NCBI GenBank assembly: GCA_032718475.1
Contig: JAUCBJ010001103.1
Coordinates: forward strand, 1-44,803
DNA: 44,803 bases
Direction: 5' to 3'
Origin: Nemertoderma westbladi
Lineage: Eukaryota; Animalia; Xenacoelomorpha
Shown here: piece after piece, positions 9,648-39,968 of the stretch
Layout: the number at the start of each line of letters is the position of its first letter
Numbering within the stretch: the stretch's first letter is position 1
The notes under the pieces: generated by a model
Database searches by the model: none
What the model was told of the DNA's origin: nothing
What the model saw: only the letters and a program-made list of their open reading frames with translations
Translations under genes and position numbers: made by a program

Positions 9648-10841
9648 TATATTTTGGCGGTAAATTCAAATCTGTTTTAACATTGAATACCCTACTGTCT
9701 GACTGTACATGAAGAGAGTAAGACTAAATGTAATTCATTGAATCAGAATAAATTATTTCTTATCGGTTTAACTCACTCATCCGTTATTGTTGTTGTTATA
9801 TCCATTCTGGGGCTTCGAGCAGCACGCGAACAACTAAACTGCTGGTTTCCTAGTCTGGGACTTCGAGCAGCTCGTGAACAACTAAACTGGCTGGGTTCCT
9901 ATTCTGGGACTTCGAGCAGCACGTGAACAACTAAACTGGCTGGTTTCCTAGTCTGGGACTTCGAGCAGCTCGTGAACAACTAAACTGGCTGGTTCCCTAG
10001 TCTGGGACTTCGAGCAGCACGTGAACAACTAAGCTGACTGGTTAACTAGAGTCTGGGACTTCGAGCAGCACGTAAACAACTAAGCTGACTGGTTAACTAG
10101 TCGGGGACTTCGAGCAGCACGTGAACAACTAAGCTGACTGGTTAACTAGTCTGGGACTTCGAGCAGCACGTGAATAACTAAGCTGACTGGTTAACTAGTC
10201 TGGGACTTCGAGCAGCACGTGAACAACTAAACAGAACTGTTATTACAGTTGAAGTACTGTAAGTACTACTACAGTAAGAAGTTTACAGTATGAAGTCTAC
10301 TGCTCTAGCTCCTTGACCTTTTAGTACGTACCAACGTACATTATGTAGCACACTGTGTAGAGTTTGTAATGGAAATATTGTAATTCTGTAATTTGAATCA
10401 ACCGCCAAAAATATATCAATTCACTGCATCTTTCTATCATCTATCCACTTGAAATCTACTATTAACATACTAGGTATAAGTGTATAATTGTTATGATTAT
10501 AATGTTCTATACTTTACTGGGATAGAAGTTAAGCCAAATCACCCGACCCGCCCCCCCTCCTCAATTTTCAATTTTGCTGGAAGTCCCAGACCTGTTAACG
10601 AGTTAGCTTAGTTGTTCACGTACTGCTCGAAGTCCCAGACTGGTTAACCAGTCAGCTTACTTCTTCACGTGCTGCTCGAAGCCCCAGAATAGATAAAACA
10701 ACAACAATACCGGATGAGTGAATTAAACCCATAAGAAATAATTTATTCTGATTCAATTAATTACATTAGCAGATTAGTCTTACTCTAGGCCTATTCATGT
10801 ATTCAATGTTAAAACAGATTTAAATTTACCGCAAAAATATA
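9648..10841. mobile_element. Foldback/MITE-like element with long inverted arms containing 49-bp tandem repeats
   Basis: 9648-9900 is the reverse complement of ~10578-10841. The left arm expands into ~9 units of TCTGGGACTTCGAGCAGCACGTGAACAACTAAGCTGACTGGTTAACTAG (9805-10231). Confidence 0.75.
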
Positions 10842-12446
10842 GGATCTGATCTGCCACCCTTTCTGCCTTTGGCCTTTGCAGTATAAATTACAAGTCCTTC
10901 AATCATTTGAATTTCCCGCGCTATAGAGCAGGGTGGCACCTTTTAGGGACTTGTGGCCTAAAGCTGTCAAGTTCTACTACAGTATTATTATTATTATTAT
11001 TATTATTAGCGCTCTTTAATGGTAAAAAATACAACAATGTATACAAAGAAATAAAACACGTTAGAGGGAGACCACCACTAGGCACCAGGCACTTACAGTG
11101 TAGGTTTAAAGTTCACTATACATACAGTAGATTTATGAGTATACATACAGTAGGATGTAGAATTTCGGACGATACAATGAAAACACATGTAAAAACAGCA
11201 ATAACAATTATGAGGAAAAACGGATTTATAAAAATTTTCAGAAATAAAATCATTTCAGCTACACTCACGGACGGTAAGAAATTGGGTATAAGTAAAACTA
11301 AAATTTGGACCATGGATGATATGAACAATAATTAAATTATATCAGATATCAAAGTTACAGAAAGGCATAAAATGTAAGACAGATCTGCAGGTGAAAGTAA
11401 ATTAATTCAGTAGGTACGGTAGGATAATTACGGTACCGGTACAGTTAAATTAAAAAGCCGCTCACAGATCAGACAGCTTTCAGCAACTTTTATACTGTAA
11501 TACCATGGTAATACAGTTTAATAGGGCAGGGGCCAATACACCAGCTGACCAGTACACTGAAAAGTTCCTGGGCAGCTGGGCGCTGAAATTTTACACCACC
11601 TGGTGTACAGGTGTAGTTCCTCCAAGGTATATATATGATTGTCAAATGTATTATATCTTTATTGTTGTTTATGTTGAAATGGCAAATGACTTTAGGACAG
11701 TTCATGATCATGGCTTTATGGAAAGTCTCGTACATTTATTATTATTAAAACAGTGAAATATTAAAACACCATCCAGATGCTCCAGCTCAACCAAGCAACC
11801 AAGGGTAGATCCTATATGGGATTATGGAATATTGACAAAAAGCGCGCCACACAGGTTCTGGTAAAACGAAAAGCGCGCCAGCCATTCACCAAGAAATTTT
11901 GCAATTATTAGGTACCGGGTACTGTCTGACTGTGTTATATTGTAATACATGTCATAATTTATCAGTTTATACTGCAGCAGACCTACTGTACAGTATTAAA
12001 ATATTAAAAGGCGAGCGTAGCGAGCAAAGAAATTTTACAGAAATATTAAGAGTAATACAGTATTAGTCAGATAGGTCAACCGACTGTTTTTAATTACAGT
12101 CAACAGATGTCACTAAATTGCGAGCATAGTGACAAAGAAAATTTTGATTATTGATAGTAACAATGTGTTGGCAAGCTGTTGATTCTGAAATTTGTACACT
12201 ACCCGGTTAAAAAGTACGCATGTGATGGGATTAGTCCTACAATTGCGCCAATAAAAAAAGATAAGTTATTTTCGGTAAAATAAACTTATCATTCGAGGTA
12301 AAGACCCCTAGATCCCTTCCTATAAATGTATAATAACAAACACCTCGAAAAATACAGCTTGCCAACACATTGTTACTATCAATAATCAAAAACTCAGGGG
12401 CTAATAAAATGGCAGCTGGCTTTGAAATTAATACTCCATATCTCAA

Positions 12447-12506
12447 GAACCTGTGGCCTCGTGGTTGTAGTCTCGGCTTCCACCTCGAGGTCCCAGGTTC
12501 GAATCC
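12447..12506 (+). promoter_or_regulatory. tRNA-like internal Pol III promoter (A box 12454-12464, B box 12496-12506), repeated at +412, +824 and +1236
   Basis: TGGCCT(A/C)GTGG and GGTTCGAATCC at tRNA-like spacing, with a CTTCCAC anticodon-like loop between them. Confidence 0.8.
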
Positions 12507-12509
12507 GAC

Positions 12510-12552
12510 ACCACGCTGATGAGACCCAGTAAGGTCGAAACGCGTACGTGGT
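12510..12552 (+). ncRNA. Type I hammerhead ribozyme, copy 1
   Basis: ACCACG-CTGATGA-GACC(CAGTAA)GGTC-GAAA-CGCG-TA^CGTGGT: stem I, conserved core, stem II and palindromic minimal stem III. Predicted cleavage after 12546. Confidence 0.92.
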
Positions 12553-12921
12553 TTGGAGAGATATGAGATATTAATTTCAAGAAAAATTACGCGATTCTGA
12601 AATTTGTACACTACCCGGATAAAAAGTACGCATGTGATGGGATTAGTCCTACAATTGCGCCAATAAAAAAAGATAAGTTATTTTCGGTAAAATAAACTTA
12701 TCATTCGAGGTAAAGACCCCTAGATCCCTTCCTATAAATGTATAATAACAAACACCTCGAAAAATACAGCTTGCCAACACATTGTTACTATCAATAATCA
12801 AAAACTCAGGGGCTAATAAAATGGCAGCTGGCTTTGAAATTAATACTCCATATCTCAAGAACCTGTGGCCTAGTGGTTGTAGTCTCGGCTTCCACCTCGA
12901 GGTCCCAGGTTCGAATCCGAC

Positions 12922-12964
12922 ACCACGCTGATGAGACCCAGTAAGGTCGAAACGCGTACGTGGT
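12922..12964 (+). ncRNA. Type I hammerhead ribozyme, copy 2
   Basis: Identical to copy 1. Confidence 0.92.
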
Positions 12965-13333
12965 TTGGAGAGATATGAGATATTAATTTCAAGAAAAATT
13001 ACGCGATTCTGAAATTTGTACACTACCCGGTTAAAAAGTACGCATGTGATGGGATTAGTCCTACAATTGCGCCAATAAAAAAAGATAAGTTATTTTCGGT
13101 AAAATAAACTTATCATTCGAGGTAAAGACCCCTAGATCCCTTCCTATAAATGTATAATAACAAACACCTCGAAAAATACAGCTTGCCAACACATTGTTAC
13201 TATCAATAATCAAAAACTCAGGGGCTAATAAAATGGCAGCTGGCTTTGAAATTAATACTCCATATCTCAAGAACCTGTGGCCTAGTGGTTGTAGTCTCGG
13301 CTTCCACCTCGAGGTCCCAGGTTCGAATCCGAC

Positions 13334-13376
13334 ACCACGCTGATGAGACCCAGTAAGGTCGAAACGCGTACGTGGT
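13334..13376 (+). ncRNA. Type I hammerhead ribozyme, copy 3
   Basis: Identical to copy 1. Confidence 0.92.
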
Positions 13377-13745
13377 TTGGAGAGATATGAGATATTAATT
13401 TCAAGAAAAATTACGCGATTCTGAAATTTGTACACTACCCGGTTAAAAAGTACGCATGTGATGGGATTAGTCCTACAATTGCGCCAATAAAAAAAGATAA
13501 GTTATTTTCGGTAAAATAAACTTATCATTCGAGGTAAAGACCCCTAGATCCCTTCCTATAAATGTATAATAACAAACACCTCGAAAAATACAGCTTGCCA
13601 ACACATTGTTACTATCAATAATCAAAAACTCAGGGGCTAATAAAATGGCAGCTGGCTTTGAAATTAATACTCCATATCTCAAGAACCTGTGGCCTAGTGG
13701 TTGTAGTCTCGGCTTCCACCTCGAGGTCCCAGGTTCGAATCCGAC

Positions 13746-13788
13746 ACCACGCTGATGAGACCCAGTAAGGTCGAAACGCGTACGTGGT
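13746..13788 (+). ncRNA. Type I hammerhead ribozyme, copy 4
   Basis: Identical to copy 1. Confidence 0.92.
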
Positions 13789-15856
13789 TTGGAGAGATAT
13801 GAGATATTAATTTCAAGAAAAATTACGCGATTCTGAAATTTGTACACTACCCGGTTAAAAAGTACGCATGTGATGGGATTAGTCCTACAATTGCGCCAAT
13901 AAAAAAAGATAAGTTATTTTCGGTAAAATAAACTTATCATTCGAGGTAAAGACCCCTAGATCCCTTCCTATAAAAGAAAATTTTAACATTTATAGCTAGT
14001 AGGCCAACCAACTGTTTTTAAATACAGAATAGGCCCTATGATTATGGATTAAATTGAGAGCGTAGCGAGCATGATAATGTGGTTTTATATTGGTTTGAAC
14101 AATTAAACAACTCATGTAGGTTAATAAACAGATACAGTAGTCTAATATGCAATAGGAATTTTGAAATAATGGATATGGGTAGGATATAATTATAAACGTG
14201 GGCGAAGCGAGTGAAAAGTTTTAACTCTTTTTAAACATATGGTACTGATATAATTTCAAGTAGGATATAAAGTGGATATATATCCAAAAGTGGATATATT
14301 GCCAGTGCCAGTGGCAGTGCTACTCAGCTACTGCAGTACTATTACTTGACATCCATCTGTCCATATGAGCGCCAGGATCCTCATTGCGCGCCACACGACC
14401 CTGTTGCTCCGCGCCAGGATCCTTAATGCGCGCCACACATGTTGAGCAAACTCTACATAAATTCCAACCTGGGGGTAGATTATAAAGACTTACAGACTTA
14501 ATACATTTGACAATCATATATATACCTTGGAGGAACTCCACCAGGTGGTGTAAAATTTCAGCACCAGGTAGATGTCGAAGTTGCGATATTCTATCATGAT
14601 AGAGCTATTCTTCCATCAAATAGAGATGGATGTCACTGTGAAGATGGGTATTCATTGATTAGTTCAACATTTGGGCTGTGAAGATTTATGTTCTCCATTG
14701 TTTTAATGCCCCTGACTTATGAATGCCCCTGCCAAGCCAATGATATATGTATCACTCTCAGAAATGCTAGTTAACCATGCTTCATTTGATCAGGTGCTCT
14801 ATCATATTTGCAATGATGTACTATTGAGACACAAGTGGTACATACAGTCATGCTCAATGCTCTCCACTACTATACAGTATTTTTGTTCTACCTACTCCAC
14901 CTGAATCCACATTAATGGCAACTTCCACCTCATATCCACCCATAGTGCACATACTCCACCCAACATACATCTTAATGTTGTTTGTCTGTTAATAATGCAA
15001 CAGTTCCCAATCATAACACATATTATTCTTTGTTACATTAACTTGGTAACTGTCAGACTGTTCAATTTTGGGGAATTCCTGTGAAACTTTAGTCTGCAGC
15101 GGGTTTGGAGCAATACCAAGGGGAATTCCAGACCCAAGCTACTTACACCAATAAGAAGATGTTGGAAGGTAGGCTAATAATATGTGGGGCGAGCCACGAA
15201 GTGAGTGAGCCTTAGCGTAGGGGTACCATTAATCAACCTGTCGTTCTGTTGCGTTTTTTTTCAGTATTTTATTTTAAACGTTAATAACTCGGCCAATCCT
15301 TGATGAAATCTATCCAAACTTGGTACACATGTTGTTTGGCAAAAGTTTGAAAATTTTCCAAGTAGAATTTGCGTGGGGTCTTCGTGCAGCATCAGTGTAA
15401 CTGTTATTGCAGTTATAATAAATTTATTTATCCAAATTTAAAATGCGTTAAATTATTATTACTGTAGGATAAATCAGCTGGTTTTTCTGACAAATTTTGC
15501 AATACATTGGAGTTGTCTGCATGTACCATGTGTACCGGTACTGTCAGGCTGTACTCAATCCCTGAATCGAGAATCCTGCAATCAGTCAATACTGCAATAC
15601 TGGTCAGCCGGTACCATACACTGCAGACATGCCATATCATGTAATCTAATTAACCCCGGCAACCCTTGCGGTGATTAAAGTTTAGGCCTAATTAGCCCAG
15701 TACCGGCACCGGTAATACTGTAATAATAATATAATAGTTTAGATAGTTACCGCTAATCATTCAGTCATTGCTGCATTGGCACGGTACACCGTACAGCCGT
15801 ATTGCTGTACTGCCGTTGTCAGTTGTAGTGCGCACCGTACTGCCGTAGGTACCACC

Positions 15857-23559: not shown

Positions 23560-23676
23560 TAATTCCACCATATTTTTATTCACCAGAGGATACTCCAGTA
23601 CCCATTAAAGACGCCCTTGAGAAATGCGCCCTAGCTCGTCCCTTTAAAGCGTTCGTCCTGAAACGAAAACTCTCCC

Positions 23677-23761
23677 GACCCCTTTGCGGGGATCGAACCC
23701 ATGACCTCTGGAGAGATGTTAATTATAGGCAACGGATTAACACTACACAAACTACAAGGGC
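23677..23761 (-). mobile_element. tRNA-derived SINE head (degenerate)
   Basis: The minus strand reads GCCCTTGTAGTTTGTGTAG...GGGTTCGATCCCC...AAGGGGTC: good B box, weak A box. Confidence 0.55.
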
Positions 23762-24438
23762 GGGAAGAACATAAAAAATCTTAGATTTTTGCTTGATCAA
23801 ATGTGGCGTCGAATGCTGGACATTGACATTGACATATAGATTATCTATCATTACTAATATCAATATTAATCATAACAACACATTTTGATGCTAACAAATA
23901 CAATAGTATTTGTAATTTCTCTGAATGCTATTTTTAATGCAACCACGGCGACAATAAACCGAGAGGATCATAGATTCGAGCTGAGTTTCAGCAGAGTAAG
24001 TGCAATACAAAAGACTGCAAGTATTTAAATTTATGCAAAAAAACCGTAAGTCAACAAGACTTGCGGTTTTTTGTCATCAGAATTTAATGAGGATTTCACA
24101 TCTGGAAATGGTTTGGCGAGATCTGTTGTATGCATTTTCAATAATTACCAGAAGTAGCTCCGATGAGAGAAAGCTTGTAATTAAACTATTGTTATTAATT
24201 CCATTAGTCACCTGAGGTCAACCCACCCTAACCTAACTGTTTAATATGAGAATGCCTTCTTAGGTTGTTTCGAGTTATCACTGTCTACCGGTCTGACCGT
24301 CAAGATGTAAATTTAGACAGAGCCAGATAAGATAATAGCAATTGTCTGGAATATGTGATTATTTGACGTTAATTAACGTTAAGGTAATTAAGCGTTAATT
24401 ATTATAATTATGTTTTTATCACTGTCAGTTGTTTGTAA

Positions 24439-24723: not shown

Positions 24724-24884
24724 AAAATACCTACCGTTTAAAATTAACGTTAATTTGCGTTAATTTTTAACGTTAAAAGGGCGGCCAAACTAACGTTATT
24801 TATATGTATTATTAACGTTAATAATTAACGTTGGCATTGTCAGAAAATAACGTATATTAATGCATTATTAACGTTAAATTGTTT

Positions 24885-26090
24885 GCAGGGCAGTTCTAAT
24901 AAACAAAGGCGTCCGATGGGTTGGTTGAAATAGTGTACCTTTGGTTTAGGTGTAGCTCTCCAAATAGCCAGTTCAACTGAGCGTACCAAACCATCATTCC
25001 CTTGATGGATTTCTATTATCCGGCCTGTTTCCCAGTTTTTTCTAGGTTGGTCTTGATCCACTAAGAGAACAATATCGCCGACTGACACATTTGGTTCTGA
25101 GCTGAACTGACAGTAAGTAGTGTCTTTCAAAATGTATAGCAAATCGACGGGATAATAATTGCATCATTTGCCAGGTGCGTCTCAGCAGCTCATCACCGTC
25201 CTGCGGTGTGGATTTCGGTAACATGGTTACTGGATTTCTTAACATAAAATGGGATGGTGTTAGTGGCTCCATCGCTTGTGGATTAGATGAAACAGGTAAG
25301 AGAGGCCTATCATTTAAATAACTCGCTATTTCCTCTAAGAGAGTTCGGAGTAGCTCATCAGTTAGATAGGCTTTACATGGAATAATATGGTGGAACGCAA
25401 TTTTCGTACTCTTATTTAGTCGTTCCCAACTTCCACCCCACCAAGGCGCATCGGCTGCGTTAAACGTCCATGTTGATGCCGATACCCTTAGATGTTCTTC
25501 TAGCTGGTGATCGTTTCAATCGGCTATGAATTTAGTGATTTCCTTGTTGGCGCCCACAAAATTCGTTCCCTGGTCAGATCTCATAGTGCGGCTAGTACCA
25601 AATCGAGCGATTTGTCTTCTCAGGCAAAGGATAAAACTTTTCATTGACATATCATTAACCATATCCAAATAAATGGCTCGAAAAGTCATGCAAACGAAGA
25701 TGACACCCCATCTTTTCACCATTGTACGGGCGCGCTTGACTTCGAAAGGTCCGAGGAGATCTACACCAGTGTGGGTGAACGGGGGTTGGTAACATTCGAC
25801 TCGTTCCCTAGGGAGTGCCGCTTCTAGTTGAGTCATCGGTTTGCTATAAATCCTTTTGCAAGGTATACAGTTTCGTAATATTTGGTTGAGAGCTGCGCGG
25901 GGGTGTACCAGGTAGTATCGGGTTCTGATCTCGCTTAATATATGTTCCCTCCTGGCATGATAGAGACGATAATGAACGTCCTGTATCAACTTGGTCTGAA
26001 ATTCCGGGTCGAATATTAGTATGGGAAACATGGTGTCTCTAGAGATCGGAGCGTTAGTCAGGCGACCGACCTCCAACTCGAATCAAACCA
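24885..26090 (-). pseudogene. int: BEL/Pao integrase (HHCC zinc-binding region, DDE core, DUF5641-like C-terminus), disrupted
   Basis: FTHTGVDLLGPF, KRWGVIFVCMTFRAIYLD, SDQGTNFVGA, APWWGGSWERLI, PLTPSHF and W.TGRIIEIHQGNDGLVRSVEL. An in-frame stop near 25516 and a frameshift near 25100. Confidence 0.92.
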
Positions 26091-26187
26091 TTTATCATTA
26101 TACTGGAGAATTTATCCGCTAATGGAGTTAGAGGGTCAATACTGAGTTGATTATATTTCTCAGGCTTCTCCAGTCTTTGTGAAACTC

Positions 26188-27009
26188 TTAATAACTGTTC
26201 AATATAACTGCGAATTTTCTTATGTTCTCGATGGTCGCGGTGTCTATTACTGTGGCTCCTGTCCGGACAGCGGATTGGTGGAAGGCAGAAATAATGATAT
26301 GAATGCGTATGATTCTCTCCTTGATGCCATAGAAGAGAGAGGGGGTGTTGTCTACATTGGGATCCCTTAAGATAGCTTCAAAGCCGGATATCTGTTTAGT
26401 AAATCCGGTTTGAAATCCTCTCAGGGTCTTTCCCACCTTGGAGATATTAGTGGGGTCTGCTGGTACCTTCAACTCCGTTAGTTCGTCAGAGGTGGCAGAA
26501 TGTAGTGGAAAAAACTTATCCATTGAAGGATAACTGTAGTATTGCAGTACAGTCTGTTTCATCTCCGTAATGGTCATTGAAAGTATCTGTACTTTCAAAC
26601 CCCTTTCGGAGGCTCTATAATTGTCAATGGCCCTTATTAGACTGATTAATAAACCTGGGGAAGGGGCCATTAATGGGTCTGTCCCTATCGGTAGGTTTAA
26701 TCCTGTGGCTGTGTCAACTCCCGTCCGGTCTAAGTCGGAAGTCGCAGTCACTCGCGGTTGGTCCGTTTGTGTTTCGAGGCCAGTAGTGGACTGGTCAGTT
26801 CGGGTGACAGGGGGTGGTCGATCTAATTTAGAGGGCATAATAAGATTTCCTAATTGATTGGAACCAGGGCGCTCTGGCTCGGGCAATTCTCTAGTCGGGG
26901 ATCTGTCTGAGTCAGAATGCATTGGTATCGCAGTCACATCAAGATTGGAAGTTTGGTCACTAAGGGAACTGTCTGAAGCACTTTTATTAGCACTTGAGCG
27001 ATAAGACAT
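26188..27009 (-). CDS. 273-aa N-terminal (gag-position) ORF of an internally deleted BEL/Pao element
   Basis: ATG-initiated ORF ~100 bp upstream of the integrase on the same strand. Homologous to the ORF at 43657. Confidence 0.6.
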   Translation of the reverse strand: MSYRSSANKSASDSSLSDQTSNLDVTAIPMHSDSDRSPTRELPEPERPGSNQLGNLIMPSKLDRPPPVTRTDQSTTGLETQTDQPRVTATSDLDRTGVDTATGLNLPIGTDPLMAPSPGLLISLIRAIDNYRASERGLKVQILSMTITEMKQTVLQYYSYPSMDKFFPLHSATSDELTELKVPADPTNISKVGKTLRGFQTGFTKQISGFEAILRDPNVDNTPSLFYGIKERIIRIHIIISAFHQSAVRTGATVIDTATIENIRKFAVILNSY

Positions 27010-28452
27010 TTTTATTAAATATTATTTCGACGAAATTTTATTTTATTAACCCCTTTTGTGATTGTTATGCCTTCCCTTTTATTATCGACCTTTTATTGCA
27101 ACAGCAATAATATATTATAAATAATTATTACAATTGCATCCAAATAATTAACACAACACTAGATCTATCTCACAAATCGCCAGACACCGGTAAATAATGA
27201 AAACGGGACCGGTAATTTCACTGTGTAGAATATTGTTGTGATAGATATTTTATTTCACCGCTAGATGGGGAGAATTATCGGATTTAACTCTTTACAAGCA
27301 AAAATATCACTAAGAGCAATGAATTATCTCCTATTGGTTCAGAGATTAACACAACCAAACAGCTATGAAGGTGAGGCTGGATTAGGTAGTATACTGTTAC
27401 TAGGAAGGGGGTATGCTATGCCTTGGAGTAACACGGCCAATCACCAATCAGTTGTGTAAGCTGAAGTGAGCAAGCTGAAATACAATGGCTATCACTGCAA
27501 CGTGGCCTACCTATCTACAGCTACTGAGGCAGATAATGCTAGCCTATTGGGTTGTCAGGGTTACTCAGTGAGAGGACTGGTCATGTGACTGATATTGCCT
27601 GTAAAACGACAAATAATTCCACCCAAGAAATATATTAGTTTTTCAAATATTACGCTGACAGAGGTCCAAGTTGTAAATAATGGATCTGAGGTGGCAATAA
27701 TGAGCTGAAAATGTTAAATAGCTCGATAATATGTATGGATATCGGTTAAATGTTCCTTTTATATTTATTATGGAATAATAATATCGGAATAAAAACCGCA
27801 CAATTATAAAAATAGTACAAAAACGTACTTATACCTAAAGTAACTACGTTACAAAATGGTGGTGTAAACTTTGAGTTCTGGGTAGTACGCAAATAAAACA
27901 AATTAATAGGGCAATAAGACAGTGGGAATTTTAACAGGGGATTTGTAAATGTTTCGAGCATTTAGGATGCCGAAACCAGACAAGAGACAAATGTTAATAG
28001 CACAAATAAAAACAATAGATACGGTTAGTAGAATGCGTCCCCGCGATTGCCACATACGCTAATTAGGGCTCTTAGTTATTTTGCCTAACGTCGGGTATAA
28101 CGAACTGTTGATGGGCTAAGATCGCTGAAAATGGTTCCAATCGACTGAAAAATTCGAACTACTAAGTCTGTACTGAGGGTAAGTCGACAAATAACAGTTT
28201 GATACTCGATTAAAGAAACGGATGTGCCCCACGATTCTTCCAGAGACTATGTTTTGGATATTGTTGATGGGCCAGTCGTACTTCTGCGCCTCAATTTCAT
28301 AAAAATAAGTATGAAAGGTAATTTGTCGGGAATAAAGTTATATTTCCTCCCACAAGGAGATAAAAACTTTATGTGTTCCAATAATGGAAATAGGAATGAA
28401 ATAGGGGATAAAATGAGGCCTACAGAATAATTACGCATTTACTTAATACACT

Positions 28453-33010: not shown

Positions 33011-33594
33011 ATTAAATACCATGCACGGCATGGCAGTTGCAGATTTATATTTTAATTGAATTTCTGCAAAGTAGTCAATCAATAATTAGATAATAGTGAA
33101 ATAATTAGTCGCATAACGTCATTACAGATAATATATAAACAGAGAAGGCGATAAAATGGTAAACAAATATTAATATTTGTAATGAATCAATTACCTGTAA
33201 AAAGCACATCTATACAAACATGATACCTACAGTAAGTTTATCAAATAACATAAATTCAAAATTAATTAATCTATCATCATTTCTTTTATGCATAAATAAT
33301 AAACAATCAACATCATAAAACTCGGGAAAGGTGTAAAGAAAAATTAATTAATTAACACGAACTGGTCGGAATATATCGCCGTATAACCAATAAACAAAGT
33401 AGGCAATAAGAAAATGGTAAGAAAATATAATCAACTGATAAGTTAAACTGATTCAAAGAATTTGTACTGTATATAAATAACATAAATAAAAAATTAATTA
33501 ATCTGGATAAATAATTTAATTTCCCGTGTCTAAATGCAAAATATACAATATAAAATCATCAATATAATTTAGTAAGCTAAACTGTTGTAGAGAG

Positions 33595-34452
33595 ATACAG
33601 TAGTTATAAAACCCGAAAATAACGAAAAAGACGAAATTAATAACGGGAATATCGAAATGATAAAACTTTATAAATAAAATCTCGCTTTCCAGTTAGATCG
33701 GTATTATTAGAAGTCACACTTTACGTTTTTAATTAATAAAATTCGATAATTTCGCCCCAATGTCGACCCTAAAACGAATTAAATACCAAATACTGTCTCT
33801 GCTGATTGTTTGTTAGGGGTAATCAAATGATGGCAAAACAACACACGATGGCGCCCAAATTAGGACAGTACAGTCATGGTACTGTCTTAATGTGAGCGCC
33901 ATCTTGTGTTGATAACGTAACTATAGCCCAGCAGTCGCAATGCAGTTAGTAGGCCTATACACTAGTGTTAGTGTATAGGCCTACTGCATTGCGACTGCTG
34001 GGCTATAGTTACGTTCACCTGTTTTTACCCGCCGCTGTTTTTATCGTATGCCGTAATGCAAACAACATTTTTTATGGGAAATACATTGTTGCAGAGTTGG
34101 GTTAGGGTACCGGACCGGTTCCTTCAACTTTGGCCCTTCAGGCTGTACCATGCTTGTAATACTGCACCGGTACACAGGCTGCTGAATTGATTCATCCTAG
34201 CCCCCATTATTGGGCAATGCCCTGTAACAACCAACCACACGACAGTATTTGGTTTTAAATTACTTTTAAGGTCAAAAATGAGTCGAAATTATTGGATTAT
34301 ATTAATTAAAAAATGTAATGTTTGCCTTCGAATAATTAATACCTATACAGTATCTTACTGGAAAGCGAGATTTTGCAGATCATTTTATAATTTCGATATT
34401 ATCGTTGATAATTTAGTATTTTTCTTTATTTTCGGGTTTTATAACTACAGTA
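33595..34452. mobile_element. MITE/foldback with ~220-bp diverged inverted arms
   Basis: TAGTTATAAAACCCGAAAATAA...AAATCTCGCTTTCCAGT...ACCAAATACTGTC is inverted at 34218-34452. Confidence 0.65.
33914..34015. repeat. Near-perfect ~100-bp palindrome
   Basis: AACGTAACTATAGCCCAGCAGTCGCAATGCAGT..AGGCCTATACACTA followed by its reverse complement. There is one 4-nt bulge and a 4-nt loop. Confidence 0.9.
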
Positions 34453-35567
34453 TCCGCTGTAGTGGCCAATAGAGAATAAAAAATTACTGTTGTAACTTTA
34501 GCTCAACAAATTGAGAATAGATTACTACAGTAATTAGTGCACTGATTGGCTCTTTAGGTTTTAAAAATTAAAGTAAATTTAAAGTATACCAACTTTTACA
34601 CTATGACCTATAAATAAAGTCTTAGGAAAAACTGATTTTGTTTACAGAAATCAATGTTGATCGAATTGTTTGATTTAATTTACAGGTAAATTTACAGTAC
34701 AATATAGTGTAATAATAATTCAGAATCATAATGGTCCTTCAATAACAGCCGATCCTCAACTGGCAGCAGGGGTACAGGGCATGACCCAGCAGATGAGCTG
34801 CACAGCCAATGGTGGGTCATGTGCGCCAGAGTAGATATGGGTGATGGGCCTCATATCTGACTCCACTGCGACACCCATGGAATGGCAAACCAGGGTGTGG
34901 TATTTTCCCCGAGAGCTGACTCGGTAAAAAAAGCACCCCCCAACCCTCATTATGGATTGCATTAGTAATGCGGAGGTCCGACCACTAGAGACCAGTGGAA
35001 TTACCGGACACAATCGGCCTCACAGGCGTCAGTTATCTCCTGAATGGCTGCCTGTCTCACCCCCTACTGGAGAGAGAGCAGCCAACAATTCTTTGAGTCC
35101 CTTTCCTGATGACCTTTCTGGCCCAAACAGGGAGGCCAGATTGTGAGGGTGAGAGGGATTCTGGAGTTGGAGGATACTCCCATGTTCCACCCCGACCAAC
35201 AAAGCCATTGGTGAATCTGAGGCAAGTCACTTGGCCTCAGTAAACACCCTAACACTCGGGTCCCCAATGCGACAAGGTGAGCTGAATGCCTTGGCAGATA
35301 AGCTTTCTCTTAGCGCAGTGGGTGTTCAAGAGCACCGATTGCAGACTGGACAGATTGATGAGGTTCTGATTAAGGACATGAAGGGCGGTTGGCGACTCGC
35401 CCTCGCGTCAGCAGACGATAGTGGCAATGGTGGAATTGGTCTATGATGAATCCAACTGCACAATATGCAGCATTGGACAAAATAGACCAAATCTCTAACC
35501 GCATCATCCGTTTCCACTTCTCATGTTCTGGAAGACTGGCTAATATAGGCCTACAATGTAAATAAGA

Positions 35568-35734
35568 CAATATGATAATGCTCTCCATAGCGAAAAATAT
35601 CAACCGGCCCTATTGGGGCTCGAACCCGGTACCTAGGTTTCAAACTTCTGGTTATCATCAGCCGGGTGAGTGTACTTAAGCTACCAGACCGGATGAATAT
35701 TTCGCTATGAAGTGGGAGATCATATTATCATATC
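35568..35734 (-). mobile_element. Small tRNA-like element with inverted flanks and an internal hammerhead, inside the RTE
   Basis: The minus strand reads CCGGTCTGGTAGCTTAAG (A-box-like)...GGGTTCGAGCCC (B box)...TAGGGCCGG. Flanks ATATGATAAT..CATAGCGAAAAATAT and ATATTTCGCTATG..ATTATCATAT are imperfect inverted repeats. Confidence 0.7.
35624..35667 (-). ncRNA. Type I hammerhead ribozyme (stem II closing pair mutated to U-U)
   Basis: The minus strand reads ACCCGG-CTGATGA-TAAC(CAGAA)GTTT-GAAA-CCTAGG-TA^CCGGGT: 6-bp stem I, intact core and palindromic stem III. Confidence 0.78.
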
Positions 35735-38253
35735 AGTCTCAAACAGACTACAGCGGCCAAGAATGCAGTTAAGGCTGCATCTAGGTCCCTGAGCAGGCAG
35801 TACTCTGTTAATCTACAGGAGCTAATAAACCAACAGGTTGATGCCATCAATGATGCTGACGACAGCAGGAAATCATCCCTGGCATGGAAATCGATCAACT
35901 TGCTTACTGGGCGGAAAAACCAACCAACGACCAAGGTTAAGGCTGAATCACCAGCCGATCGCCTCAATGGTTGGAAGGACCACTTTGAAAAGATCCTCAA
36001 TAATGACAGGGTATTGCCTGATAACTTTATAGAAGTAAAATTGTCTGAGTCTGTACCTTTTGGTCTGTACCCATATTTCCATTGGCGATATCGCCTTTGC
36101 AGAAGTGAAGGCTGCTGCAAAGAGCATTAAGACCAATCGTTCCTGCAGATTAGATGGAGTTCCCCCTAGGTCTTTAAAATACCTGAGTGTTTAAAGCTTA
36201 TCTATCCCATCATAGTAGATATGTACCGAACAACAAGAGTCCCACAAGAAATGAAAACAAATAAGTTGGTGCCAGTTCCCAAGAAGGGCAACCTAACACT
36301 CTATGGTTCTTTTCGGGGAATCTCATTTCGGGGCATCTCGATTGCTGCAAAGCTATTAGGATTCTATTAAATCGCATCAGGGATCCCATTGAGAGACTGC
36401 TCCATGGAAATCAGAATGGGTTCCGTAAAGGTCGTGGGACCATGGAGCCCATTTTGGCACTTAGAAGGATAATTGAAGAGTTATCAAAAAAGAAAGACAG
36501 GCATCTGGCTGTTAACTTTGTTGACTTTTTCAAGGCCTTTGATTCAGTCTCTCGCTCACGTATGTTCAGCATACTTTCATTATATGGGATTCCTGATGAA
36601 ATTATTGCAGCAATCAGATCAGTATACGATGGTTCGACAACATTTGTATCTACTGTTGACGGTGACACAGAACCATTTGAAGTGTTATGGGGCGTCCTCC
36701 AGGGAGACACACTTGCACCATTCTTGTTCATAATTGTGGTCGACTATGTTCTACGCATGTCCTTAGATCATCATAATGATGATGGGGTGATGATAACTAC
36801 TGGCTCCAGAAGTCGAGGAAATCCTGCCAAGTACCTAACTGATCTAGACTTTGCTGATGACTTAGGAGTACTCTCAGAATCACTAGAGGGAGCCCAAAGG
36901 CTCCTCAGCTCATTAGAACAGGCTGCATCTAGTGTTGTCTTTTTATTAACTCCAGAAAGACCAAAATTTTGACAGTTAACTTTGAAACTTTGAAAGTCCT
37001 CAGCAAGTCTCTGATCGGATGAGCATAAGCTCAAAGGATGTTATGCTTGAGCAAGTGGACGACGTGGACGACTGGGATCATGGATTCGGAAGTCAGGTGA
37101 GGACCTTCGAATACGTAAGGGAAAGGCATGGGCAGCCTTGAATAGGCATTCCAGGATTTGGAAGTCACCTAGAATTAATCGTAAACTTAAGGTCCGATTA
37201 TTTAGAGCAGCAGTAGTTCCACTACTCCTCTATGGGAGTCCATGCTGGGCTCTAACTGCTGAGGACACCAAATCTCTGGATGGCACATTCACAAGAATGC
37301 TACTCCGCGTTCATTATGTCAAGTTCAATGCACACATCTCCAACCAGACATAATATGACATTGGAGGTGTCTCATTGGTTCCCCCAAGCTTGACACTAGA
37401 ACAAAATCGCCTCCGCTTTGCAGGACATTGCTTTCGCCGTGAGGACCAGCCAGTGCATAATCTTGTACTTTGGCAACCTCATGGAGTGAATAAGCATGGT
37501 GGACAGCCATGACTTTCTTGAGACGCATCTTAAAGGACACTGCTTTGAAGATGCGGATAATCTAGCAAATGTCATGGGTGATAGGGAGTTGTGGCGGCGC
37601 AATGTTGTCGACAAGCCGGCACAGCATTCTTAAAAATGCAGCTGCAATGCAGCATGCCAATCCTAGTAGTAGTATAACAGCCGATTGCGTCCAGATAAGA
37701 AGAAAACCAACCGCATTTGTTTCACATTCCAAATTTTAAACATCAAATGGGCGAGAATGGTTTGTTAAATACTGGGAATCATTTGATAAGGGGTAGAAAA
37801 AGTACTCGATTTGTGGACCTAATTTGTACACACAGACAACTAATGAAATTTGTAATTAAATTTTTACAATCCAAATATAAAATTAACTGTAACAAGCAAT
37901 ATAACTCGGCTAGTAGAAGTGGGTATTATTCCGTTCAACTTCTGTCACTAAACAACTGATACTCTAGCAATATTTTATTATGTGACCTCAAATTAAATAT
38001 TTCGTCCCACGTCTACTAATCGTACAGTAGTCCAATAAACATACAATTTGGAAAAATACATTAAGTTGGGAAAAATGCGAAATTATAGATGATTTAAGCT
38101 TTTGAGACAATTACTACTGTAGAACCATATAGAGAATTACAATACGCCACGCCATAAACGTTCGCTTCTAAATGACATGACTATCAATGGTTTCCAAGGA
38201 AACAAACCTTTTAATAGACGAACTCAAGGTATAAAGACCGGAATATGTAGTCT

Positions 38254-38925
38254 CTAGGGTTCTCCAGGTTTGTCCGTGGGTCCACCAGGTTGGTCCGTGT
38301 AACCGTCAGCTTGGTACGTGGGTCCTCCAGGTTGGTCCGTGGGTCCTCCAGCTTGGTCCTCTATCGGTTGCGGGTAAGTTTCCTCCCCCTGATTAGAGCT
38401 GGGGGCATTGGAGGTCACACAGGAGTCTCCGCCAGGTGTCCTCTCGCCATCTTGACACGAAGAGTGGGCAATAGAGGCCTCGAGGGAGTATAAAAGAAAT
38501 AAAATGAAACCTGAAAGGTAAACGAGAGATTCAAAAAGAGTCCTATCCCTTCCAAGAAAACTAAAACTCACAACAAAAACCATACTAGCGATGAAATAGA
38601 AGACACCGACTACGGCAGCGTAGATCATCTCAATATACATCCAGTTGAGAGTAAGTTTGGAGCCCGATATAAAGAAAGTAAGTAAGAGGGCAGTTCCCAA
38701 CCATGCGGTTACAGAGACAAATAGGAAGAAGTGACTCATCCAGTCAGGTGAGAGTGATGCCGCCATAACCCATACAGGTAATCCCACGACCAGTTCTATA
38801 ATTTTGTAAATTCCAGAAGTCGATATGGCGTAGCGAATATTGATACCACCCTGACGCAGTGGAGGTTCAGCTGATCCATCCGTTGTGTGGGAAGCTCGGA
38901 CACCCGCTGGATCTGGGAAACTCAT
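38254..38925 (-). CDS. MARVEL-domain four-transmembrane protein (CMTM/MAL/plasmolipin-like), 223 aa, single coding exon
   Basis: NIRYAISTSGIYKIIELVVGLPVW fits the MARVEL N-terminal pattern. Four hydrophobic segments, W.YIEMIYAAVVGVFYFIAS, and a C-terminal GGPTDQP repeat tail. Confidence 0.8.
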   Translation of the reverse strand: MSFPDPAGVRASHTTDGSAEPPLRQGGINIRYAISTSGIYKIIELVVGLPVWVMAASLSPDWMSHFFLFVSVTAWLGTALLLTFFISGSKLTLNWMYIEMIYAAVVGVFYFIASMVFVVSFSFLGRDRTLFESLVYLSGFILFLLYSLEASIAHSSCQDGERTPGGDSCVTSNAPSSNQGEETYPQPIEDQAGGPTDQPGGPTYQADGYTDQPGGPTDKPGEP

Positions 38926-39968
38926 CGATGAGTGGAAAAAAACGTAAAAATATAGAACAATTATAAGGGATAAAATTTAATCGCAATTTTAGGCTGCAGA
39001 CAGACCTGCCTATGGCGAATTAAATTAATGTACTGACTTCCAAATTTTTTTTTCAAATTTTTTTTTTCTCTTTCATCTAGAGCAGATTTTTATCAAGATT
39101 CCAAATATGAAAACCGTTTAGTAAGATCTGTCTTACTTCTCTGGATATGTCTGTCTGTGTATTAAAAAAAACAGGTTACAACTTCTGAAAATAAAGCAAA
39201 GAAAACAAAGGAGAAGCATTTTAAGTCAAAAAAGTAAATTTGGCTCTAGCTGCTGAGGGGTGTCAAAATGTTTTTTTTTAAAACATTACAATTCAGTAAA
39301 GTCCACCCAAAATAGATATTATACTTATTTTCTACTTATTAGCTTTTTGGTGCAGTAAGCATTTCCAAATGTTGACTTCCAAGCCAGTAACCCGAGAGGG
39401 TAAATTAATTATTAACCCTATTAGTACCGGGCTATAAAATGTTGTACAAATACCGGGGGGGGGGGGGGGGTCATATTGACCACCCCCCCCCCCCCCCCCC
39501 CGTCTAAAATCTACAAATTTTTACGAAAACGTCTGATTTTTGTTTGTACGTAGGTATTACTAGTCTTGATCCGACCGAAAAAAAAATTTGAAAAAATGTA
39601 CTGGGGTGGTTAAATATTGCAGCACCAAAATTACAAGTAGTGCACAATTTTCACAAAATTTGAAAGTTAAATTTTTCGGCTAATTGTTTTTCAATACAGG
39701 TTTTCTGGGGCGCAAAATACATTGGAAAATATTTAAAAATGATAGGATTACTATAAATGGCTGTTTAGTCCTCTCTGCGTAGGAAAAAAATGTAAAAAAA
39801 CAAATAACCAGCACTTTTCAGTTAGAACACAAAATTTTTAATTCATTTATACGATGCTATAAATTCATGTTTTCAGGTTTTCGAGGGCGCTGATTCTAAT
39901 GGAATACATTTCTAATATGCCAGATCATTGCTACTTGTATTTTTGGCGTCGGATTCAGGACCCTCATA

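Follow-up and report, generated by a model that had tools for sequence, protein, structure and literature searches.

We found that a repeat family of Nemertoderma westbladi carries a type I hammerhead motif between an A box and a B box, and this anatomy is confirmed as real at the family level. Judged by their letters, the two boxes are likely those of a Pol III promoter derived from a tRNA. The copy described here lies on the minus strand at 35552..35737 of the window (the whole 44,803-nt stretch of DNA analyzed, contig JAUCBJ010001103.1), its limits being given by its joint with a host LINE and by the start of family depth at about 35552. It is a clipped copy of a young family and has the form of a hairpin with the A box, the hammerhead and the B box at its tip.

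Read along the minus strand, the element begins with a left arm (35691..35737), an imperfect inverse of the right arm that is common to other copies up to about 35727 and is clipped here. An acceptor-stem-like 5' strand (35684..35690) is followed by an A-box-like motif (35673..35683) fitting 10 of the 11 positions of TRGYNNARNNG, while the B box (35616..35626) fits all 11 positions of GGTTCRANYCY (consensuses from PMC12498455); 46 nt lie between the two boxes. The hammerhead itself (35624..35667, 44 nt) starts with the 5' strand of a 6-bp stem I (35667-35662) and the core segment CUGAUGA (35661-35655). Stem II, of 3 bp with a 5-nt loop II, lies between U10.1 (35654) and U11.1 (35642), which close it as a U·U. 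The core segment GAAA (35641-35638), a palindromic 8-nt stem III (35638-35631), H17 as A35630 in a GUA triplet, and the 3' strand of stem I (35629-35624) complete the ribozyme. GUA triplets are present in active natural hammerheads (PMC1636495), and hammerhead numbering would put self-cleavage at 35630/35629, where the first-pass annotation of this DNA had also predicted it. That annotation had stem I running into the B box, and indeed B box bases 1-4 are hammerhead positions 1.4-1.7, a four-base overlap. Residues for a putative contact between loop II and stem I are present as U1.7 (U35623) and the last A of loop II (A35646); in a schistosome ribozyme, U1.7 contacts a loop II ending in A (PMC11875169).

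Downstream of the B box are an acceptor-stem-like 3' strand (35606..35612) and the right arm (35552..35605), which holds a five-T run resembling a Pol III terminator (35593..35597) and extends in other copies by at least 8 further AT-rich bases, as read from loose ends before 35552 and 35555. The first-pass annotation had described imperfect inverted repeats of about 40 bp. Such arms are there, 37 nt long and 76% complementary, with a local alignment score of 46 against a maximum of 33 among 1000 shuffles; the boundaries it had given, 35568-35734, were too narrow. Counted by eye, the arms contain 4 wobble pairs versus 1 A·C, too few for a lean towards G·U to be of use.

All the tRNA-like and hammerhead letters that had been quoted were found on the minus strand by direct reading, and the CUGANGA, GAAA and UH core together with stems I and III reads as that of a type I hammerhead; the pair at 10.1-11.1 that closes stem II, usually G-C, is a U·U in this copy. 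A type I descriptor matched the window five times (the element and four units of a separate tandem array) and had no match in 100 of 100 Markov-1 random windows. Rfam HH9 matched weakly (19.7 bits and E 0.013 on 221 nt, below the gathering score of 52), and its match to the element was missing at E<=1 when the whole window was scanned. ARAGORN called no tRNA on the window and Rfam had no tRNA match at E<=10, so the tRNA label rests on the boxes and the acceptor-like stem. Among 12,730 sampled positions, the chance rate was 3.0% for an A-like box upstream and 0.19% for a B box downstream. Pairing in the T arm is down to 3 bp, with P<=0.01 in folds, and the T-arm region is one that we take to resemble a lysine tRNA.

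We surveyed the family in contigs of public sequencing runs, eight of which were listed, seven with the stretch or part of it, and five of which were compared; runs X1, X2 and X5 belong to three separate studies, and X1 is possibly the source sample. Contigs on the element numbered 1235 in X1, 662 in X2 and 90 in X5, which bears out the expectation of a multicopy family, and 0 in X7, a count that is no proof of absence. The 24 listed pieces comprise the longest among 2027 together with some located at a joint; 19 of them extend across the cleavage site by at least 31 bases in either direction, and several of these bridging pieces lie inside contigs of 0.6-3.9 kb whose remainder is unlike this stretch. 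Summed depth does not equal copy number; depth ramps almost linearly towards 35552 and towards 35673, as a word-edge effect would produce, and if that effect is assumed, the minimum estimated roughly from X1 and X2 is 180-530 copies. In X5 one 165-nt contig had a depth of 932, versus 39-50 for three contigs with other flanks, from which we infer that about 20 copies share that contig's left end with its inverted outer piece. This copy is clipped on both sides, since others run on beyond 35552 and the left arm is longer in one abundant variant; positions 35728-35736 had zero contig cover, which again does not prove absence.

The survey also bore on the promoter-like boxes. Two changes, at 35677 and 35678, are private to this copy, with about 99% of the depth there lacking them, and the usual A box of the family is closer to the consensus and more tRNA-like. 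Loose-end consensuses at 35673 (25 and 18 contigs, with an agreement of just 0.45 and 0.47) place the same A box farther out by 8-9 nt. This box thus recurs at two spacings in X1 and X2, and the placement of the ribozyme between the boxes, as originally proposed, is kept in at least two spacing variants. In the B box only 35621 (within the consensus R) and 35616 vary, each at no more than 3.4%. The most variable site of the family, 35607, has three alleles, and for each alternative base the loose-end consensuses, which are unphased, have the complementary base at its partner 35689. The five-T run (35597-35593) is broken in 3.7% of X5 depth and in no more than 0.06% in X1 and X2.

Within 35587-35657, 18 sites vary at 1% or more in some run and 10 reach at least 3%. 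None of the 10 sites varying at 3% or more (35570-35667) falls among the 28 positions of the core, H17, stem I and stem III (P ~0.03); at a 10% threshold the count is 0 of 5 (P 0.18). Within the 44 nt of the ribozyme, three changes are common, namely N7, loop II and U10.1>A. Their confinement to tolerated places has P ~0.009 with the tolerated set picked after the data were seen, and ~0.05 is fairer because two of the three changes are probably on one X5 haplotype. Core variants at 1% or more are limited to N7 and to A14>G at 1.1% in X5, so that the prediction that CUGANGA, GAAA and GUA would be retained across copies held. Stem I has no variant at 1% or more, and the covariation that had been expected there was not seen. 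Common variants thus spare the catalytic core and stems I and III, which is modest evidence of constraint; it is modest because the family is young, with most non-core sites invariant too, the set was chosen post hoc, and a haplotype is shared.

The U·U at the base of stem II had been suspected to mark a dead copy, and a consensus was expected to restore the closing pair. U10.1>A makes up 44 of 156,856 in depth in X1 (0.03%), 0 of 68,250 in X2 and 932 of 2,288 in X5 (41%); U·U accordingly holds in more than 99.9% of X1 and X2 depth and an A-U pair in 41% of X5 depth. As the majority state, U·U is no mark of a dead copy, and no general restoration took place. A U·U likewise sits at the helix II base in the axolotl HHR_Amex2, whose monomer cleaves 22% in 1 h and whose dimer does better (PMC7229834).

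The whole unit folds at z = -4.8, with 0 of 200 shuffles folding as well, which is the high self-pairing expected of non-LTR retrozyme RNA. In folds of this copy the hammerhead form lies 6-7 kcal/mol above the minimum, and the predicted probability of stem I is at most 3% in 16 of 16 prefix folds, the cleavage strand or loop II being occupied by the tRNA-like 5' strand; in the array it is 15-76%. For the isolated ribozyme domain the probability of stem I is about 0.9. Two ribozyme domains co-fold at -39.0 versus 2 x -11.8 (-23.6) kcal/mol through an 8-bp intermolecular stem III, the energies leaving out tertiary contacts; dimers with a shared stem III have been described for animal type I hammerheads (PMC4209133). 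These models predict a blocked monomer and a favored dimer, that is, a weak ribozyme that would be mostly off unless two copies pair. The low stem I probability in the prefix folds and the missing G10.1-C11.1 pair would speak against a working ribozyme. Were it to cut at 35630/35629, cleavage would separate the A box from the B box, as the first-pass annotation had pointed out from the position of the hammerhead.

If the ribozyme were dead, the element might be a relic, a decaying chimera that is passively amplified and whose A and B boxes are leftovers or look-alikes. The lack of a tRNA call by ARAGORN and Rfam, the T-arm pairing of only 3 bp at P<=0.01, the A box of this copy, which lacks the last G, and the disfavored stem I in folds all suit that explanation. 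We nevertheless regard it as most improbable, given a B box at 11 of 11 positions with just its two variants of 3.4% or less, an A box found at two spacings in the X1 and X2 loose-end consensuses, and variants that keep clear of the core.

The same window contains a differently ordered tRNA-hammerhead repeat about 21 kb away, a 412-bp tandem of 4.4 units on the plus strand (12134..13984, with the array itself at 12181-13974) in which a tRNA head (A box 12454-12464) precedes the hammerhead. Its units are more than 99% identical, a 23-bp stalk surrounds tRNA head and ribozyme, and its circular monomer folds at z -4.4. A perfect inverted piece of 38 bp marks its 5' end and its target-site duplication measures 12 bp; it is a very young retrozyme insertion with a Penelope-type signature and an Sm-alpha-like order. 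The view that the two families are independent was sustained, as they are unrelated outside the ribozyme core; a 3' motif common to both was considered and dropped, the 3' regions scoring 18, a value equalled or exceeded by 470 of 1000 shuffles. Elsewhere in the window, a third B box (23699) belongs to a degenerate tRNA-like head without a hammerhead (23641-23790, minus strand), probably of another SINE family.

The element interrupts a decayed LINE on the plus strand, delimited by tblastn with full-length relatives, of which the start of the endonuclease region (35153..35543) and the linker and reverse transcriptase (35738..37506) remain; some 247 codons are absent where the element sits. In run X4, one contig joined 35543 to 35738 across 736 other letters, and measured against a full-length relative, residues 112-358 are lost at the same place; 194 bp (an 8-bp filler and the 186-bp copy) thus stand in for 736 bp of LINE. 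The filler (35544..35551) forms, with the next two bases, a motif found 12 times in the window versus 0.6 expected. No target-site duplication was found at the junctions of this clipped copy, and the copy has no A-tail or simple-repeat tail. Run X4, whose status as RNA is a guess, gave two contigs, an intact LINE and a 181-nt piece at depth 3. The host LINE (35153-37506) is of a very abundant single-ORF endonuclease-RT family with an intact-length relative in X4; Clytia and Branchiostoma, two named among the 120 matches listed, have relatives at 56% identity, and a homolog search with the LINE linker gave no match. The motif with 12 occurrences, an 8-base palindrome, supplies the filler at the right end of the element, and a related motif occurs in loose ends at the left ends of other copies. 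In X1 and in X2 a single contig (depth 24 and 46, respectively) connects the end of the LINE to the hammerhead start on the opposite strand (35545/35668), possibly from an allele in which the core is flipped between the arms.

Joints in family contigs were mostly single low-depth contigs, matched at 80% likeness; 6 of 8 were opposite-strand, with varying breakpoints. Three fold-back joints (35620, 35628 and 35630 to 35673) contain a second, inverted copy of B-box and ribozyme sequence, which is absent from the ordinary left arm, while two others (35605 to 35639 and 35605 to 35644) look like internal deletions with both arms kept. One left end is shared in X5, and several different left ends occur overall. 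No tandem joint was found among the joints seen, the family unit exceeding the stretch compared and the window having one copy. We discarded the idea that the fold-backs at 35628 and 35630 are cDNAs ending at the cleavage site, as there is 4-base microhomology and 35673 may be a match limit of other copies.

As to how the family spreads, we tentatively favor a non-coding, non-autonomous, retrozyme-type retroelement family that is copied by Penelope-type enzymes and has a ribozyme predicted to be weak and mostly off unless two copies pair. The opposite-strand joints, within the limits of single low-depth contigs, have the form of head-to-head inverted truncated copies with variable breakpoints; Penelope-like insertions typically have a 5'-truncated copy inverted beside their 5' end, and some of them join by microhomology without a duplication (PMC8557442, PMC3846280). 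Animal retrozymes have been tied to Penelope pLTRs (bioRxiv 10.64898/2026.07.22.740005), and the array, with its inverted 5' piece and its duplication, indicates that such insertions occur in this genome. From the five-T run and the shared arm upstream of the tRNA-like start, it follows that the mobile unit is larger than the Pol III transcript of a solo copy would be.

Under this preferred reading, both arms would be carried on a transcript that exceeds the Pol III unit in length and comes from read-through or from a tandem. In the monomer the tRNA-like 5' strand would pair with the cleavage strand or loop II and most RNA would stay uncut, whereas two copies sharing the 8-bp stem III would cleave. 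Uncut or re-ligated RNA would then be copied, starting at its 3' end, by a Penelope-type reverse transcriptase/endonuclease, and the new copy would frequently gain a 5'-truncated piece joined to it in inverted, head-to-head orientation. In copies templated by a cut linear piece the B box would have no A box in front, so that only copies spanning the site would keep the promoter. For the anole Penelope-like enzyme, uncut RNA is the main template in vitro (PMC11167929), which would explain the copies that span the cleavage site.

Several observations run against parts of this reading. Penelope-type spread would be expected to leave a target-site duplication of 8-12 bp, and none is found at this copy, which lies within a deletion; a tandem joint is missing among the joints listed, though tandems define retrozymes. 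With the T5 stop before the right arm and the left arm upstream of the promoter, the internal promoter of a solo copy could not make the mobile RNA. The left end with an inverted outer piece in about 20 X5 copies fits a fixed terminal inverted repeat and re-mobilization equally. Among 29 scanned ORFs of the window, none had a Pfam domain of an autonomous Penelope-like partner.

A fixed terminal inverted repeat is what one would expect if the family were a MITE, a non-autonomous DNA transposon in which the A box-hammerhead-B box cassette is passive cargo between terminal inverted repeats, and those 20 or so copies with one left end are a point for it. The cassette is flanked by arms in every variant seen, the right arm in X5 is covered about twice as deeply as the B box and stem III, and the joints of 35605 with 35639 and with 35644 resemble internal deletions in which both arms are retained. 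The T5 run and the upstream arm pose no difficulty for a DNA transposon. Transposase activity can leave a deletion adjoining an insertion, so the deletion beside this insertion would be consistent with it as well. Its arms are only 76% complementary in this copy, however, no duplication is seen here, and fold-backs into the B box and ribozyme would be unexpected. It also leaves unexplained why common variants avoid the catalytic core, and the array has the same tRNA-hammerhead-on-stalk design together with a retro-type 12-bp duplication. On balance we find this explanation doubtful. The SINE/MITE-like label of the first-pass annotation thus survives in its second half, as a rival, and fits poorly in its first.

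For a LINE-dependent tRNA SINE, in which the hammerhead replaced the anticodon and variable arms, the good A and B boxes with workable spacing, the presence of a very abundant LINE and the climb of X5 depth towards the 3' end, as for 5'-truncated copies, would be natural. Shared sequence continues upstream of the tRNA-like start to about 35727, however, where a SINE would have its 5' end at that start; the T5 run precedes the 3' part, with the shared unit running more than 40 nt beyond it; and the inverted arms, the head-to-head joints and the lack of an A-tail or simple-repeat tail in this copy all point elsewhere, making a SINE very unlikely.

A further possibility is a classical tandem non-LTR retrozyme with a rod-like circular RNA. 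Its true monomer would be longer than the copy in the window, master arrays would produce the dispersed pieces as dead offspring, and the promoter would be restored across the ligation junction of the circle. Because the family continues past the clipped ends, a joint between tandem units would escape notice here, and the strong self-pairing (z -4.8), the palindromic stem III with its dimer fold and the 412-bp array, a repeat of just this type with its own circular monomer at z -4.4, are all in keeping with it; vertebrate retrozyme families include many monomers (bioRxiv 10.64898/2026.07.22.740005). Against this, the joints seen include no tandem one and Pol III read-through would stop at T5, and as to the copying enzyme it overlaps with the preferred reading. 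We consider it distinctly unlikely.

A bolder reading concerns the geometry itself, namely that promoter and ribozyme are interlocked, with the B box serving as substrate strand, such that only circles or RNA re-ligated by the host tRNA ligase would yield promoter-bearing copies. Cleavage would then halve the Pol III promoter, and unit-length linear RNA would have B before A. We think this unlikely.

Compared with known systems, the wiring is new and the kind of element is known from Sm-alpha and from retrozymes, from which it is set apart by their descriptions. Like this element, Sm-alpha and Sj-alpha of Schistosoma are short, high-copy animal repeats with a tRNA-related Pol III promoter and a hammerhead (PMC6765202, PMC2770079). 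There, according to a review description (PMC6765202), the ribozyme follows the promoter, which stays whole after cleavage. Here the A and B boxes are likewise internal and that order is broken, the ribozyme lying between them and overlapping the B box by four bases, and the unit is enclosed by long inverted arms. The axolotl Rtz_353/HHR_Amex2 has, as here, a type I hammerhead with a short palindromic helix III and U·U at the base of helix II, and metazoan non-LTR retrozymes share the strong self-pairing and the lack of coding capacity (PMC7229834). Non-LTR retrozymes consist of tandem units of 170-400 nt, each with a type I hammerhead. Those compared here give circular RNA from tandem repeats, and the sections of the source that were consulted mention no tRNA promoter inside them (PMC7229834), whereas copies of this element are seen dispersed.

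Penelope-like insertions and pLTRs have a hammerhead near the 3' end and head-to-head inverted truncated copies, some without a duplication and with microhomology joins (PMC8557442, PMC3846280, PMC11167929, PMC4209133); the present element differs in having no ORF, a hammerhead of canonical rather than minimal size, and tRNA boxes. The Helenus non-autonomous LTR elements resemble it as non-SINE parasites that borrowed a tRNA-type Pol III promoter, and differ from it in their direct LTRs, primer-binding site and 5-bp duplications, a ribozyme being undescribed in the available part of the source (PMC10886601). Full-text literature searches, covering listings and the papers cited here, returned no description of a hammerhead between A and B boxes.

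We also looked for the family and its architecture in other sequence collections. A family 22-mer had 0 matches in metagenome contigs and 0 in genome contigs, which were mostly prokaryotic and say little on animals. Patterns for the architecture gave 0 and 21 loci in viral contigs, 85 in metagenome contigs and 29 in genome contigs; a loose stem filter passed 3 of 106, without a credible stem III, and 0 of 29, and we set these loci aside as chance matches. Two metagenome contigs (L001 and L037:460-560) have tRNA-like genes with CUGAUGA and a later GAAAC in the anticodon region and no hammerhead stem I, and were likewise set down to chance.

The window holds further features of its own. On the minus strand, a 240-aa ORF runs without interruption over 38254-38976; it has a short repeat tail and a weak match to the MARVEL domain (E 1.2e-5, below gathering), and a homolog search with it gave no match. 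On the same strand, 24840-27021 contains decayed pieces of an LTR retrotransposon (integrase zinc finger, rve and DUF5641) that is presumably BEL/Pao-like. Other inverted-repeat elements lie at 9648-10841, 33594-34454 and 33914-34015, including internal 49-bp tandem arrays in one and a 102-bp near-palindrome.

In the known hammerhead repeats with tRNA promoters (schistosomes) and in the retrozymes of many animals, the promoter is wholly upstream of the ribozyme or unmentioned in the descriptions consulted; here the two are nested, and a young family with this nesting stands beside a conventionally wired array in one genome. It also provides a second natural hammerhead family with a U·U in stem II, together with a natural A-U variant for comparison. 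Should the arms turn out to be transposon ends, the family would instead be a curious case of captured cargo. With a cleaving ribozyme and a functional promoter, it could tell whether retrozymes transpose through uncut, re-ligated or circular RNA, as each of these routes would leave new copies with the A and B boxes in a distinct order. The interlocked arrangement, if true, would amount to a built-in selection for circular templates and would make the family a natural reporter of retrozyme circles as transposition intermediates.
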